Shown: positions 8,499 to 40,627 of the stretch, one piece after another
Position numbering within the stretch: the stretch's first letter is position 1
Layout: every line of letters starts with the position of its first letter
DNA from: a virus
DNA length: 64,000 nucleotides
Virus record (IMG/VR): IMGVR_UViG_3300032770_000012
Span: 37,194 to 101,193 of that record
Reading direction: 5' to 3' (one strand)
The notes under the pieces: model-generated
What the model was told of the DNA's origin: nothing
The model's database searches: none
What the model saw: only the letters and a program-made list of their open reading frames with translations
Translations under genes and position numbers: made by a program

Positions 8499-9122
8499 AT
8501 GAAAGTCGCCATATATGCCCGCGTGTCCAGGGACGATAAGGACAAGGACGGGAAACAAGTACAACATCTTGAGAATCAATTACTTGCACTGAGGGAGTTC
8601 TGTCTAATGCGGGATTGGACCATCGTACACGAGTACACTGATATGGTCTCCGGAAAGTCCGGCGAGCGAGAGCAGCTAAAGGCAATGCTTACAGCGGCAT
8701 CGCGGCATAGGTTCAATGCTCTGCTGGTCTGGTCTCTTGATCGCCTGACACGCGAGGGAATTGGTCCAACGTTCGATTACATCAGGCGATTACAGGACTA
8801 CGGTGTAGACTTTATCTCATACAAAGAAGAGCACTTCCGTACTACTGGCGCAACCGGAAAGCTAATGCTAGCCATCGCTGCGTGGATTGCAGAGCAGGAG
8901 CGTCAGCGTCTTTCCGAGCGTACTAAGGCGGGTCTTGAAAGGGTCCGGCGGGCAGGTACAGTCCTAGGTCGTCCGCGATCCGTGGATATCGTCAAGGATG
9001 GAGCGTTGATACGTTCTCGCCGGGCGGGTGGTGATAGTATCTCATCTATTGCCAATGAATTAGGGGTATCTGGAATGACTATCAGGCGATACTTGGGGGG
9101 TTCCAGGTCGGTCTCAGACTAG
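8499..9122 (+). CDS. Small serine recombinase (resolvase/invertase) with C-terminal HTH
   Basis: AIYARVS catalytic Ser, SLDRLTR, ERTKAGLER...LGRP, C-terminal HTH. Confidence 0.95.
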   Translation: MKVAIYARVSRDDKDKDGKQVQHLENQLLALREFCLMRDWTIVHEYTDMVSGKSGEREQLKAMLTAASRHRFNALLVWSLDRLTREGIGPTFDYIRRLQDYGVDFISYKEEHFRTTGATGKLMLAIAAWIAEQERQRLSERTKAGLERVRRAGTVLGRPRSVDIVKDGALIRSRRAGGDSISSIANELGVSGMTIRRYLGGSRSVSD

Positions 9123-35587: not shown

Positions 35588-36985
35588 TCACATTGAACTC
35601 CAGAAGTCGCCGCCCTCCACCTTGCCCTTGGTGGGATTCCTAATCGGGTAAGGAGCATCAGGTGCGGGAACTCCTAGAAATCCGCACAATTCGGTCCAGC
35701 CGGTAGATGCGTCCATATCCATCACCAACAGATCTCGCGGGCGATCTCTGAAATATTCTTTGACTTCCGCGTTGTGGCGTCTATAACGCGCCAGGAATAT
35801 TCGCGGGGAAAAATCCTTTTGGCCATACAACGCTGTATGAATCCGATTGGTGAACGGATAAATATCCCAGAGTTTGCGCGTGGGGTTGTGCTTATAGCTC
35901 CACAGTCCCTCCACGCTTTTGAGCCAATCACGCTCGTTCCGTATGGTCAGAATGAACTTCGATCCGGGATAAGCCCGGTCCAGTTTCCTGTAAAGCAGCG
36001 GAATCGGAAGATCGGACAGCGCATACCACTGCTCCAATGTTTTGGAGCGACCGAGAGCATTCATTTCCTGCCAGATCAACGGGGATTCTCCATTTCCCCA
36101 ATGAAAGCTGTCGAATCCCAGGAGTTGCAACGCTGCGTGGAGAGAACTGGTAGCCGTTTTGTGCATACCAATACCGAATATTCGCGTCGGAATGGGCTTG
36201 AGTTCAATGGGCGTCGATTCGAAATTGCGGTATACAACACCTACTCCGAATTTTCCGTAATTTACGACGGTTTCTGTCCTGGATTCAATGGCTCTCCACT
36301 CCTGGTTATTTTCGTACTGTCTGGCGTGCGGATACTCTTTGAAGCGCACTTCTGCGCTGTGCGGAATAGCATTCAGGTACCGGTTTTCAATGTGCCGCAT
36401 CGAGTAGCCCATGCGCCTGAGGCGATTTATCATGTCGATGTCTTCGCCGTGCCAAGTATCAAAGCTCTCGTCATATCCACCGGCCTTTATGAAGGCGCTG
36501 GACCAGACGGCTAAACGCCCGGCATATCCGCGCTGCGGGCGCTCGGGGCCATGCGGAAGGCTCTTGATGAGCGGGAAGTCCGGACAGAGGAAGATGCCCG
36601 GTACCATTCCTGGTTCCTGGAATTTTTCGGCCACGAATTGGGCGAAGTTCGGTCCTGTGAAGTTGTCGGCGTCCAGCGTGACCAGGATTTGCGCTCCCTC
36701 CAGTATGCCGCAACGGGCGGCTGTATTTTTCGCATGCGAGACGTGAAAGGGGCCTTCAGTAGGGTGAGAGTAGACGACCAGACGGCCAGCCGAGATTGCA
36801 TCGGGGTGTTTGGATCGCAGGCAGTCCAGCAGGCCATCCTTGTCACCGTAGTCCAGAACCACAAATTTGAGGTTCGGGTAGTCGGAGTTGTCGGCTAGGT
36901 TGCGTGGCAGGGTTTGCTCAAGGTGCTGCATCCGGCCCTTGCATGTCGTCGCGAACGCTATGCGCGGAGTACTCATTGAAGCCAT
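35588..36985 (-). CDS. Glycosyltransferase (GT2/GT7C-like) fused to a PAPS-dependent sulfotransferase
   Basis: LDADN DxD, GGYDESFDTWHGEDID; C-terminal 5'-PSB IGMHKTATSSL and 3'-PB FILTIRNERDWLKS. Confidence 0.88.
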   Translation of the reverse strand: MASMSTPRIAFATTCKGRMQHLEQTLPRNLADNSDYPNLKFVVLDYGDKDGLLDCLRSKHPDAISAGRLVVYSHPTEGPFHVSHAKNTAARCGILEGAQILVTLDADNFTGPNFAQFVAEKFQEPGMVPGIFLCPDFPLIKSLPHGPERPQRGYAGRLAVWSSAFIKAGGYDESFDTWHGEDIDMINRLRRMGYSMRHIENRYLNAIPHSAEVRFKEYPHARQYENNQEWRAIESRTETVVNYGKFGVGVVYRNFESTPIELKPIPTRIFGIGMHKTATSSLHAALQLLGFDSFHWGNGESPLIWQEMNALGRSKTLEQWYALSDLPIPLLYRKLDRAYPGSKFILTIRNERDWLKSVEGLWSYKHNPTRKLWDIYPFTNRIHTALYGQKDFSPRIFLARYRRHNAEVKEYFRDRPRDLLVMDMDASTGWTELCGFLGVPAPDAPYPIRNPTKGKVEGGDFWSSM

Positions 36986-37503
36986 TCTGGAACAACTTCG
37001 CGGCTAACAAGTTCCGGGTAAGAAGAATTTTTTATGACAGACTCGATTACAAAATCCCGCATCGCCATGCCGCGCTTGGCGGCTTGATATTTGATGGACC
37101 ATAAGAAATCTTCGGAAACACGCACGGCCAGAATCGAATCCCCAATACCCCTAGCGGAGCGTAGCCTTTCGCCTTCATTAGCGGGCAGGCGGTCCAGGTA
37201 CTTCTCCGACGGACTTTGATTGTTACGCTTTAGACGGTTCGCGAGCGGCCTATAAATATTCATGGCCGTTAACTCGGCCTTTAGGGCTTCGCGGCTATCA
37301 GCGTACCATCCGAGTATCGTGACATAACAAACGCATTCGCGCACCGTGCGCCACCAAGTCGCGTTCCTCCCGCCACTAGACATGGCGCGCAAAATGCTCC
37401 CTTTGCCGATATAAACGAACCCAAGCTCCTCGCAAACATGTGCGTAGACGCAATAGTTTGCCCAAGGCGGGGCATGGAAGGATCTTTTGGATGCTCGGGC
37501 CAT
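36973..37503 (-). CDS. GIY-YIG domain fused to a C-terminal RHH domain
   Basis: YCVYAH...FVYIGKG...RA...EALKAE...PLAN; tail KYQAAKRGMAMRDFVIESV. Confidence 0.75.
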   Translation of the reverse strand: MARASKRSFHAPPWANYCVYAHVCEELGFVYIGKGSILRAMSSGGRNATWWRTVRECVCYVTILGWYADSREALKAELTAMNIYRPLANRLKRNNQSPSEKYLDRLPANEGERLRSARGIGDSILAVRVSEDFLWSIKYQAAKRGMAMRDFVIESVIKNSSYPELVSREVVPEWLQ

Positions 37504-37505
37504 CC

Positions 37506-37700
37506 TCAGTACTCTCCTTGGCTGTTCTTAAGAATTGATTCAACCACCCATTCTCTGGCAGTCATATCGCGCTTGGCCGATTCGATCTTGACGATTTGGA
37601 GTAGAGCAGAACGAACGCCAGCGATCGCCAGCGTGCGCCTGCCTTTATCTTCCTGCTCAAGCAGAAACTTGTGAACTTCGGACCTAGTGGGATTTTCCAC
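37506..37700 (-). CDS. Ribbon-helix-helix regulator
   Basis: TLAIAGVRSALLQIVKIESAKRDMTAREWVVESI. Confidence 0.65.
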   Translation of the reverse strand: MENPTRSEVHKFLLEQEDKGRRTLAIAGVRSALLQIVKIESAKRDMTAREWVVESILKNSQGEY

Positions 37701-37970
37701 GTCGGAAGCACGAGTCTAACGCCGCCGTTGACTAAAGTCAACGGTCTATTGTCTGTCACGAAAGTGAAATTATTTCTCCTTTCTTTTCAGTGACGATTTC
37801 CGGCTAAGTTATTGATCCATTCCAGAACCGCTATCACCGGACCCAATGTTCATCGCATTGCAAGTGCCAGCTTTTGGCCGATAAGTCTTTTACTTGCATC
37901 CTAGCGGAGAGTAACTATCCGTGTTTTCATGGACCTGTCCGTATAATAGAGCAGGAGATGACACAGCTTT

Positions 37971-38195
37971 ATGACAACACTAGGATGCAAGATAAAGAGG
38001 CAACTGCCGAGGCCGATCGACCGGCGAGACTGGGTTATAGAACTCGATCCGATCGGCATTGCCTTCCGGCGCAAGGGCAGCCCCAGGCGGTTCCTGATCG
38101 GATGGGACTCGGTCTGGAACCGCGCCATGGAGATCGCTGCCGAGCAGCTTCGCAAGGAGCGAGCCGCCGCGCGCAAGGCACGGAGGTCCAGATGA
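37971..38195 (+). CDS. Hypothetical phage protein
   Basis: AGGAG RBS; TATAAT at 37942. Confidence 0.7.
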   Translation: MTTLGCKIKRQLPRPIDRRDWVIELDPIGIAFRRKGSPRRFLIGWDSVWNRAMEIAAEQLRKERAAARKARRSR

Positions 38196-38782
38196 TCAGA
38201 CTGTACAACCATACGCGGTACTCGGACTCCTTGCTGCGAGAGATCTTTAACTTTGCGGCGCGATGCGCAGGAGTGTCCGGAGACGTGCCGGTAAAGATCA
38301 ACTATTGCAGGCGACGGCTATGCGGCGCGGGCTATGCTTATCGGAACTATCCGTACCGCAAGACGCTGATCGGCAGGCCCAGCACAAGTCGCGACAAGCG
38401 CTTGCTTAAATGCCCTGTCGGTTGGATCGAGATGCGTCTTCCGTGCGTTCTTGTGGATGCTTGGCACAAAGCCAACAATACTAGTCTATCCGATCCGGAC
38501 AAGAATGCGTTGGTCGCCGCCGAATGGTTCGTGGATGTGGCGATTCACGAGATGGCGCATATCCGGCAGTTTCGGGAAGGGACGAAGCCTGTCGGCTATT
38601 ATGGCAAGCGGGTAGCGGGCGGGACGCGCCGCGACCGGCATGACTCTCGACCCTGCGAGGTTGACGCCGAGAATACCGTGGATGCCGTTCGGGATAATCG
38701 CTCACGCGATCGGCGCCGTCAGGAGTTGGCCCTTAAGCTAGCCTTGGAGTTGCTGGCGGCTGATGTTGGTACTACTTCCTAG
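38192..38782 (+). CDS. HEXXH zincin-like metallopeptidase
   Basis: ATG 38192; AIHEMAHIRQ with downstream EVDAE. Confidence 0.7.
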   Translation: MIRLYNHTRYSDSLLREIFNFAARCAGVSGDVPVKINYCRRRLCGAGYAYRNYPYRKTLIGRPSTSRDKRLLKCPVGWIEMRLPCVLVDAWHKANNTSLSDPDKNALVAAEWFVDVAIHEMAHIRQFREGTKPVGYYGKRVAGGTRRDRHDSRPCEVDAENTVDAVRDNRSRDRRRQELALKLALELLAADVGTTS

Positions 38783-38815
38783 TTGACACAGCGGCGGTTT
38801 TCGGGCAATCTGGAG

Positions 38816-38892
38816 TTGCCGACCGCTCTAACAAGCACCAAGTTCCGATGAGAACACGCCCGGTCAACCAAAGGCCGGGCGTTGGTGTTTTT
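38816..38892 (+). ncRNA. Putative C4-like antisense small RNA
   Basis: TTGACA-17-CAATCT upstream; three-way junction ending in a GC stem and T-run; 5' 19 nt complementary to 38973-38990. Confidence 0.55.
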
Positions 38893-39024
38893 GGGCGCGT
38901 AAAATTTTATTATTGACACGTTTCAGCGAGCGGGGGTAGACTGTTTTCCGTAGCTAATTTCATCTCTCTGTTTTGTTAGAGGGTTGGCAAACCAACAAAA
39001 CAGACCGGTCGGAGGAGTGTCTCT

Positions 39025-40251
39025 ATGGCACATGTCGGGGAGCGGTATTGTTCTCAAGAACTTCAGGGGTTCACTCCTATTCCAGATTGGATCTCTCGAA
39101 TACCAGAGGAGCGTCTGTGCTGGAACGAGAAAGCACTTCTGGCTAGGTTGCAGCGTTACGGTCAGGCGACTGGAGAAATTTTCCCGGCCATAGAGTCCTT
39201 GGCTCGTGAACTCGGGTTGAGCCAACGTACGATCTGGAGATACCTCGGGTCGCTCAAGGGCAAGAAATTCATTGAGCGCGAAAGGTGCCAGAATTCTCCA
39301 AGCCGTTTCTTCCTTGTCCGAACCTCGGAAACTCCTGAAAACACAGAAACCGCCAACCCTGGCGGTTCTGGTTTGGCAACTGCCAACCCTGGCGGTTCGG
39401 AACTGCCAACCGTGGCGGTTGCTACCATTAGTAGTGAAGATACAAGCCTAAAAGAGAATACCCCCTATAAGCCCCCCTCCCAGAAAATTCAGAATCAAAA
39501 CCTAATACCGGGAGAAGCAAACGCCTCTGGAGAGGAAGTGTGTAATGTGCTCAACAGGACTCCCCGCATCAAGCGTCTGAACAAAGCTGAGCGCACAGCC
39601 GTAGTTGAGCGGGCTTCAGCCGTTCTCATTCCGGTTTCTGACTGGGAGCGCCACGCGACGGCGTATGCACTCTCCGATTTCGCCCGCGAGCATGACTGGA
39701 AAATCCATTTTTTCTTGAAAAACCCGACATCCTGGGTCCCATCTTACGAGCCTTCCCCTCAGCAAACCCCCAATCCCGCTGTTGCGCCCGCCCCAAGGCT
39801 GCCGGATTCACCGGAGCCCCAAGCATCGCCCAGTCATCTCCCGGCTCAGGTGACCGTGCCAATTGGCGAGAGCGGGTTGCCGGTGCCGGTCGAGATGTGG
39901 AATCGATTGGTTCCGTCCGGGGTTAAAATCACGTTCTGGGAATTCTCCAACGGCAACCATGCCGCCCTGAAAGCCGCGTGGTCGAACGAGCGGTACCGGT
40001 CGAACTTTGAGACGATGTGCGTGAAAGCCGAGCCGATTATCAAGGCCCTGGGACCCGAAGTCTGGTGGTTAAATTTCTTCTGGCTTCTCAGGCCGGACAA
40101 CTGGCAAAAGCTGCTATCCGGAGTCATGGACGGTATGCCGAAGAAGAATCGCCAGCAAGCGCCAGCCAGACTATCGCGAGAGGCCGAGGGTCTAGCGGCG
40201 ACCGAGCGCGCCAAAAAACTAGTGGAGGAGCAATTCAGTGGAAGCAAGTAA
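39025..40251 (+). CDS. Phage replication initiator (N-terminal winged HTH, HTH_36-like)
   Basis: FTPIPDWI...IFPAIESLARELGLSQRTIWRYLGSL...FIER; upstream of dnaB; GGAGGAG RBS. Confidence 0.85.
   Translation: MAHVGERYCSQELQGFTPIPDWISRIPEERLCWNEKALLARLQRYGQATGEIFPAIESLARELGLSQRTIWRYLGSLKGKKFIERERCQNSPSRFFLVRTSETPENTETANPGGSGLATANPGGSELPTVAVATISSEDTSLKENTPYKPPSQKIQNQNLIPGEANASGEEVCNVLNRTPRIKRLNKAERTAVVERASAVLIPVSDWERHATAYALSDFAREHDWKIHFFLKNPTSWVPSYEPSPQQTPNPAVAPAPRLPDSPEPQASPSHLPAQVTVPIGESGLPVPVEMWNRLVPSGVKITFWEFSNGNHAALKAAWSNERYRSNFETMCVKAEPIIKALGPEVWWLNFFWLLRPDNWQKLLSGVMDGMPKKNRQQAPARLSREAEGLAATERAKKLVEEQFSGSK
39348..39420. repeat. Three palindromic 20-bp iterons (probable origin inside the initiator gene)
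   Basis: AACYGCCAACCSTGGCGGTT at 39348, 39378 and 39401; A-rich tract follows. Confidence 0.85.
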
Positions 40252-40627
40252 AGAAAATATCGGCATGTTGCTTGACCGCCTCAGTATGCTGGCGGCTTTG
40301 CCGAATTACCCCAAGGACGAGAGGATTCTAGCGGACATCGCCCGCCGTATGTGCAAGTTTCTGCACAACCGCGACCGCAACGAAGTCGTCCGCGAATTTC
40401 GTCACAAAGAGGGCCTGGATGTTTTTCCGGAATTGCGGATACCCGAGATTGAAGGCCCCGGACCGAACGACATCGATCAGTTTTTCGACATACTCAGCGA
40501 GACGTGCGAGTTTTTTCCGCCACTCATCAAAATGCGCGAACTTCACGAACGGGTCTGTCGGAATGCCGATGGAGTGACAGCCGGGGAACTGCTCTCCAGA
40601 TACCACTCGGTGAGCGAAGGCGAATAA
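40238..40627 (+). CDS. Hypothetical replication-module protein
   Basis: Overlaps the initiator; CEFFPPLIKMRE recalls loader-type proteins. Confidence 0.65.
   Translation: MEASKENIGMLLDRLSMLAALPNYPKDERILADIARRMCKFLHNRDRNEVVREFRHKEGLDVFPELRIPEIEGPGPNDIDQFFDILSETCEFFPPLIKMRELHERVCRNADGVTAGELLSRYHSVSEGE

Follow-up and report, generated by a model that had tools for sequence, protein, structure and literature searches.

Phage P4 blocks the expression of its replication genes with the CI RNA, which pairs with sequences in the leader (PMC4825925), and the c4 RNA of phage P1 is a trans-acting repressor of Ant synthesis (PMC8546580). The two RNAs thus provide a precedent for the control of phage replication and regulatory genes by co-oriented RNAs acting in trans. 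The c4 RNA is processed from an operon transcript, and its target includes the ribosome-binding site (RBS) of icd, to the translation of which that of ant is coupled. Enterobacterial small RNAs with a 5′ seed (RybB, OmrA) or derived from 3′ UTRs (CpxQ, SroC) combine a single-stranded seed, a stable structure, and a Rho-independent terminator. In phage lambda, the oop RNA is transcribed antisense to cII, and in pSC101, P1 (RepA), F (RepE), and R6K, autorepression of the initiator via iteron-like inverted repeats at its own promoter is established. To our knowledge, small RNAs and phage regulation are almost entirely unexplored in Acidobacteriota, and the sRNA biology and Hfq dependence of these bacteria have barely been studied.

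The locus considered here lies in the last 64 kb (the window) of a complete virus record of 101,193 bp with terminal repeats. A sequence-only reading had proposed that a small antisense RNA, transcribed from its own promoter, controls the replication initiator in the manner of P1 C4 and P4 CI, and every sequence feature that it described is present. We put the probability that pairing at the RNA level regulates initiator synthesis at about 0.4, with about half of this falling to an independent transcript from the candidate promoter P1. The anatomy of the unit, the energetics of pairing, and the rank of the initiator leader as the best target in the genome speak for the proposal, whereas the weakness of P1 and the lack of a predicted effect on the RBS speak against it.

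The likeness to P4 CI is that of a small, stable, structured RNA that is encoded ahead of the replication genes under its control, in the same orientation, and pairs with short complementary sequences in the leader (PMC4825925); in our case, the unit occupies 38816–38892 and the initiator gene (rep) 39025–40251, both on the plus strand. CI, however, is processed from the leader transcript itself and pairs with seqA and seqC on either side, causing premature termination, whereas the phage locus has one main site downstream of a separate strong promoter. The c4 RNA of P1 and P7 (Rfam C4 antisense RNA) is likewise a trans-acting RNA of about 77 nt from the same strand, encoded just upstream of the gene that it represses (PMC8546580). 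The unit differs from it in having its seed as a 5′ tail and its target 35–52 nt ahead of the AUG; no change in RBS access is predicted. It therefore falls outside the C4 family on two counts, having no covariance-model match and a different target geometry: the target neither covers the RBS, as with c4, nor triggers nearby termination, as with CI.

By analogy, the layout appears closer to that of the enterobacterial 5′-seed and 3′-UTR-derived small RNAs than to the C4 family, with a seed, a structure, and a terminator at the 3′ end of a coding operon, and a unit in this position could therefore arise by processing without a promoter of its own. The differences are that there is no homology to these RNAs and that the phage target is a leader hairpin rather than an RBS.

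The initiator gene, its promoter, and its leader

The downstream gene (39025–40251, plus strand) encodes a lambda-O-like replication initiator of 408 amino acids, which agrees with its earlier assignment. The protein matches Pfam HTH_36 (3.5e-6) and PHROGs 270, 391, and 678, annotated as "replication initiation O-like"; its DnaD_N match is below the curated cut-off. Three 20-bp palindromic iterons AACYGCCAACCSTGGCGGTT lie inside the gene at 39348–39420 (3 matches versus 0.01 expected), in the inter-domain linker of the initiator, where they encode the repeated peptide ANPGGS. From its sequence, this cluster is probably the origin. The N-terminal HTH domain and the repeated palindromes inside the gene are those of a lambda-O-type initiator with an intragenic origin, so the layout of the locus is lambda-like.

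The comparison with O and ori-lambda extends to the position of the iterons in the linker of the initiator's own coding sequence, with the difference that there are three of them in the phage and four in lambda. As with lambda oop, an RNA unit of about 75 nt that ends in a terminator adjoins the initiator gene, in the phage locus on its upstream side. Unlike oop, the phage unit is co-oriented with rep and antisense to no gene. The term "antisense" fits only loosely, since the RNA would be encoded in trans and on the strand that also carries its target.

Transcription of rep is served by the promoter P2 (38913–38942, plus strand; TTGACA-18-TAGACT, 10/12 match), already recognized in the sequence-only reading, which is the best promoter-like site in a 3-kb scan of 37500–40500. 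Just upstream of its −35 is the AT-rich palindrome TAAAATTTTA (38900–38909), unique in the genome, which may be a UP-like element or a coincidence. The center of this palindrome (38904.5) is within about 1 nt of the center of the inverted repeat formed by the tail and its target.

The leader is about 76 nt long and folds with −30 kcal/mol (z = −2.1). It contains a stem-loop at 38967–39004 (plus strand) with a perfect stem of 11 bp, as had been described, the arms of which (38967–38977 and 38994–39004) are 100% complementary; inside it are the inner pairing GGUU/AACC and the apical loop GGCA. No U-run follows the hairpin in the sequence, and no terminator follows the target. The Shine–Dalgarno (SD) sequence GGAGGAG (39011–39017, plus strand) is located 7 nt before the ATG at 39025. 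The region of the P2 −10 and start (38928–38950) can also form a G-U-permissive helix of 19 bp with a partner 80–240 nt downstream, near the beginning of the rep coding sequence; only about 11 helices of this kind, this one included, exist in the genome.

The upstream operon, its terminator, and the candidate promoter P1

Rightward transcription departs from a divergent control region at about 37700–37970 and enters the upstream operon (37971–38782). The listed ORF of 302 amino acids (37874–38782) is, judging from its sequence, probably an over-extension of what are really two genes on the plus strand: an ORF of 74 amino acids (37971–38195), which encodes a basic protein, and a gene for an HExxH protein of 196 amino acids (38192–38782), a putative metallopeptidase with the motif HEMAH. 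The stop codon of the former overlaps the ATG at 38192 as ATGA, and GGAGG is found 6 nt before this internal ATG. Neither protein belongs to a Pfam or PHROG family; the 74-aa ORF has no Pfam match, and the sole Pfam match of the 196-aa protein is weak (DUF6782, E = 0.053). Divergent from the operon, at 36973–37700 on the minus strand, are two leftward genes whose products have C-terminal segments resembling ribbon-helix-helix domains; one of them, a protein of 176 amino acids, looks GIY-YIG-like at its N-terminus on visual inspection and matches CopG weakly (E = 0.12). These genes may be early regulators of the module.

Downstream of the operon, a Y-shaped three-way structure at 38835–38887 is followed by UUUUU at 38888–38892 (plus strand). 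Its core (38835–38890) has a folding energy of −28.2 kcal/mol (z = −4.37), and none of 200 shuffled sequences folds as well. The inner hairpins GUUC/GAAC and ACGCCCGGUC/GGCCGGGCGU are enclosed by the outer stem GCACCA/UGGUGU, in which 6 bp are formed, including one G-U. The unit of about 75 nt with an outer stem, two inner hairpins, and a T-run therefore folds as proposed, except that the outer stem has 6 bp and not 7; the seventh pair was dropped because it would compete with the inner hairpin for U38882.

A terminator scan matched 38856–38882, followed by TGGTGTTTTT. This stem of 10 bp with 8 G-C pairs is located downstream of a co-oriented gene (stop codon at 38780–38782), as in an intrinsic terminator, and since it is closed by the outer stem, the UUUUU at 38888–38892 directly follows the helix. 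The primary role of the structure at 38835–38892 is that of an intrinsic terminator for the two genes of the upstream operon, and it possibly also serves as the body of a small RNA. Both this structure and the 11-bp leader hairpin clearly exceed chance.

Assignment to a described RNA family was not obtained. The whole window gave no Rfam match at the gathering score, and a search of 38600–39200 with permissive filters and E up to 10 returned only two chance-level matches to unrelated families (E = 7–9). The comparison with the Rfam C4 models by Infernal, suggested together with the original proposal, thus gave no match to C4 even at E up to 10, so membership in C4 or any other Rfam family is ruled out. 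No tRNA or tmRNA was found, and these identities were dropped; the unit is single-copy in the genome, which rules out a repeated element.

The candidate promoter P1 (38783–38811, plus strand) has a perfect −35, TTGACA (38783–38788), which directly adjoins the 3′ side of the TAG stop codon of the upstream ORF (38780–38782). Its −10, CAATCT (38806–38811), at a spacing of 17 nt, is poor, with 2/6 consensus matches (A2 and T6) by sigma-70 criteria, from which the host consensus may differ. P1 was not called by the promoter scan of 37500–40500. In three related phages, the rep promoters are TTGACA-17-TAGCAT, TTGACA-17-TACCGT, and TTGACG-19-TACTGA; all have a −10 of the form TAnnnN, so a −10 beginning with TA seems to be the norm among these phages. 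From its sequence, P1 is doubtful as an independent promoter: the claim that TTGACA at 38783 drives the unit is right about the −35 and falters at the −10.

Possible pairing of the tail with the leader hairpin and competing explanations

Between the stop codon and the terminator is a 19-nt tail, the putative seed ttgccgaccgctctaacaa (38816–38834, plus strand), which is complementary to the target ttgttagagggttggcaa (38973–38990, plus strand) in the apical half of the leader hairpin, 35–52 nt before the AUG. The helix consists of 9 bp, a one-base bulge, and a further 8–9 bp including one G-U (18 bp). In other words, there are two differences between the target and the tail's reverse complement, an extra base and a position that gives the G-U; the tail segment CUCUAACAA has its counterpart in the target segment UUGUUAGAG. 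The pairing, with its one bulge and one G-U, had been noticed from the sequence, and it is also listed by the repeat search. The 9-mer CTCTAACAA occurs in the whole genome only at the tail and target sites, and the tail, the target, the hairpin arms, and the AT-rich palindrome are each unique, which rules out a dispersed operator motif.

The tail/target duplex has an energy of −26.5 kcal/mol, and opening costs 5.7 kcal/mol for the tail and 12.4 kcal/mol for the target, most of which is buried in the stable leader hairpin, leaving a net value of about −8 kcal/mol. Cofolding gives −71.8 to −74.4 kcal/mol compared with −59.9 to −65.1 kcal/mol for the separate RNAs, a gain of 9.3–11.9 kcal/mol. 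According to these calculations, pairing is predicted to be thermodynamically favorable after the opening costs. With a transcription start near 38817, the whole tail is predicted to be single-stranded.

When a 23-nt tail was scanned against both strands of the whole genome, the initiator leader was the best non-self site (−29.0 kcal/mol), with runners-up close behind (−28.7, −28.0, and −27.9 kcal/mol). Random 23-mers paired with the 160 nt located 80–240 nt downstream reach −29 kcal/mol or better in 27 of 5988 cases (0.45%), and a helix of at least 18 bp, with G-U and one bulge allowed, was found at 1 of 3994 random positions. A full scan of the 101-kb genome finds about 11 comparable helices of at least 18 bp at the spacing of 80–240 nt, most of them inside genes, and the tail/target repeat is therefore not an outlier in itself. 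Its placement is unusual: the left arm sits in the stretch of about 50 nt that separates the stop codon from the terminator and has no other explanation, and the right arm falls in the apical half of the leader hairpin. Based on how densely such helices occur across the genome, we estimate the chance of this joint placement at roughly 0.01–0.05.

The target ends 21 nt before the SD sequence, and in a constrained fold with the target held unpaired, the opening energy of the SD/AUG region stays at 11.6 kcal/mol. Direct RBS occlusion is therefore not supported and was rejected, and the parallel with P1 C4 drawn in the sequence-only reading fails on this point. A second, weaker complement of the tail, AGACCGGUCGG (39002–39012, plus strand), overlaps the first two G of the SD sequence; its duplex of −14.7 kcal/mol, set against opening costs of 8.7 (site) and 5.7 (tail) kcal/mol, is unfavorable alone and too weak to matter.

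We propose that the 19-nt tail and the terminator would form an RNA module of the "seed plus terminator" type. The module would be the released 3′ terminus of the upstream mRNA or a product of its processing; a primary transcript of about 75 nt from the weak P1 is a less likely origin. If such an RNA accumulates, its seed would act in trans in vivo: by pairing with the apical half of the stem-loop that forms in the 76-nt leader of the P2 mRNA, it would open this stem-loop. Because the target lies 35–52 nt before the AUG and no effect on RBS access is predicted, remodeling or destabilization of the leader is the likelier effect: the change in initiator synthesis would probably follow from altered leader structure, mRNA stability, or processing and not from occlusion of the ribosome, and its direction is not predictable. 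As a candidate, the small RNA is reasonable but unproven.

Several observations weigh against RNA-level control. The −10 of P1 has two consensus matches, while the rep promoters of relatives follow TAnnnN; the terminator is fully accounted for by the upstream operon; the energy of the leader site is only marginally ahead of the runners-up; and there is neither an Rfam match nor homology in the upstream regions of relatives. Much the same evidence suits an ordinary gene boundary, made up of a terminator, a sigma-70 promoter, and a structured leader, with fortuitous complementarity between tail and leader and no regulatory small RNA. The terminator and P2 are both well formed and P1 was not called, helices of this length and energies of this size recur at the frequencies given above, no effect on RBS access is predicted, and neither an Rfam family nor conservation in the relatives examined was found. 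What such a boundary does not explain is that the left arm sits exactly in the unexplained gap of about 50 nt and the right arm in the apical half of the leader hairpin, or that the 18 bp contain only one G-U and one bulge, with the G-U on the transcribed strand. We consider this account somewhat unlikely; were it correct, the locus would still be a clean example of a lambda-like origin-within-initiator module.

The two arms could also act as DNA, being inverted protein-binding sites that flank P2 and through which the initiator or another phage regulator autoregulates rep or assists the origin, possibly by looping. Counted from the P2 start, their positions are about −124 and +33, and the center-to-center distance of 157 bp corresponds to approximately 15 helical turns. 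Read on the opposite strand, the target core AGGGTTGGCA agrees exactly with the iteron core TGCCAACCCT, a match for which we estimate a chance of about 0.03 for an independent 10-mer, and the repeats may therefore be Rep-binding DNA sites. The tail carries TGCCGACCG, which resembles TGCCAACCG in the third iteron, and 4 of the 6 TGCCRACCS sites in the 64-kb window are clustered within 38817–39412, although the pattern was partly derived from these sites. Autorepression by the initiators of iteron plasmids (pSC101, P1 RepA, F RepE, R6K) is a precedent, and the related phage L192 has direct repeats of 13–14 nt flanking its rep promoter. However, each site here has only half of the palindromic iteron, the shared 9-mer is without an iteron counterpart, and the L192 repeats do not recur inside the L192 rep gene. 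The plasmid operators are alike in having an inverted iteron-like sequence near the initiator promoter, but their half-iterons are adjacent and overlap the promoter, whereas the phage arms are widely separated and neither overlaps the −35 or the −10. The sole mismatch is a G-U on the transcribed strand and would be C-A on the other, so that reading the repeat at the RNA level is mildly favored, and the bulge, a 1-bp indel in the DNA, shifts the register between the two sub-motifs of the copies, which an RNA helix tolerates better than a protein site does. On this balance, action as DNA sites is unlikely. Pairing in cis is very unlikely: with a leaky terminator, read-through transcripts from the upstream operon would carry both arms and form the helix between 38816–38834 and 38973–38990, enclosing the terminator and P2 and marking read-through initiator mRNA, e.g., for processing. 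Both arms are on the same strand, 138 nt apart, and the P4 CI system operates inside a single transcription unit, where targets flank the RNA on both sides (PMC4825925), but the MFE and centroid folds of 38783–39045 keep the local hairpins and lack the long-range helix, and P2 looks strong enough to supply rep mRNA without read-through.

A combined form of RNA-level control is improbable in its full extent, namely that an RNA of about 75 nt belonging to no known family, with a 5′ seed, a three-way body, and a terminator, arises from its own promoter or from a 3′ UTR and invades the initiator leader hairpin, while the invaded 10 nt would also serve as an iteron-like half-site and thus be shared by RNA pairing and initiator binding. 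If regulation by RNA pairing is real, a large, otherwise uncharacterized phage of soil Acidobacteriota would control its replication initiator through an RNA, and the short list of co-oriented trans-acting phage RNAs (P1 c4 and P4 CI) would be joined by a family that is unrelated in sequence and differs in target geometry.

The host and related phages

The phage DnaB (41526–42920) is 58% identical to the cellular DnaB of Bryobacteraceae, and homologues of the N-terminal domain of the initiator (39025–39500) are present in 43 of 401 Bryobacterales genomes, where they probably reside in prophages or other mobile elements. On the basis of these two similarities, the host is probably an acidobacterium of the Bryobacterales (Acidobacteriota). 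As the relatives of the DnaB are cellular Bryobacteraceae helicases, its matches were rejected as a guide to synteny and are useful for the host only. In the 43 genomes, the regions upstream of the Rep N-domain homologue show no similarity to 38783–39024.

For the RNA to serve immunity or copy-number control, as suggested, the phage would have to be temperate or live as a plasmid. No tyrosine integrase was detected in the phage, and ParB is matched only below threshold. The only recombinase found is a small serine recombinase (8499–9122; Resolvase, E = 9e-36); the phage could be lytic, a plasmid-prophage, or of another lifestyle.

Searches of viral, metagenome, and genome collections with single-protein, three-sequence-alignment, and 27-nt DNA-pattern queries returned no relatives of the initiator, and phage and plasmid collections contained no near or distant DNA matches. 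A full HMMER scan gave 234 distant initiator homologues. The closest of them (P0002–P0005) are 31–41% identical to the phage Rep over roughly the full length, and another (P0006) sits on a contig of 101,058 bp.

The terminase places the phage in a clade of IMG/VR phages of 95–106 kb (L107–L186 and L187–L198) with 36–52% identity and one outlier at 27%. Rep homologues occur in 9 of the 19 terminase-related records; their C-terminal domain is common, while the N-terminal DNA-binding domains are swapped, and most of them have an HNH-like gene directly upstream. None of these nine Rep-bearing phages has a homologous upstream unit, and their best tail/leader helices are only 11–14 bp long.

In one of the related phages (L187), 330 nt upstream of the rep start (locus position 1353), TTGACA-17-TACCGT is followed by a long hairpin, the 3′ side of which ends in UUUGUUUU. 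There is no obvious second promoter, and the sequence is not homologous to 38783–39024; the hairpin has the appearance of an attenuator in the leader or of a small RNA. Given this promoter and the long terminator-like hairpin before rep, structured terminator-bearing leaders may be a theme in the group. The direct repeats of L192 (reverse strand) have the sequence GTGGG(G)CGTTTCGCA and are located at −181 and −77 from the rep start, on either side of the rep promoter. Several of the related terminases carry intein domains (PF14890, PF14528).
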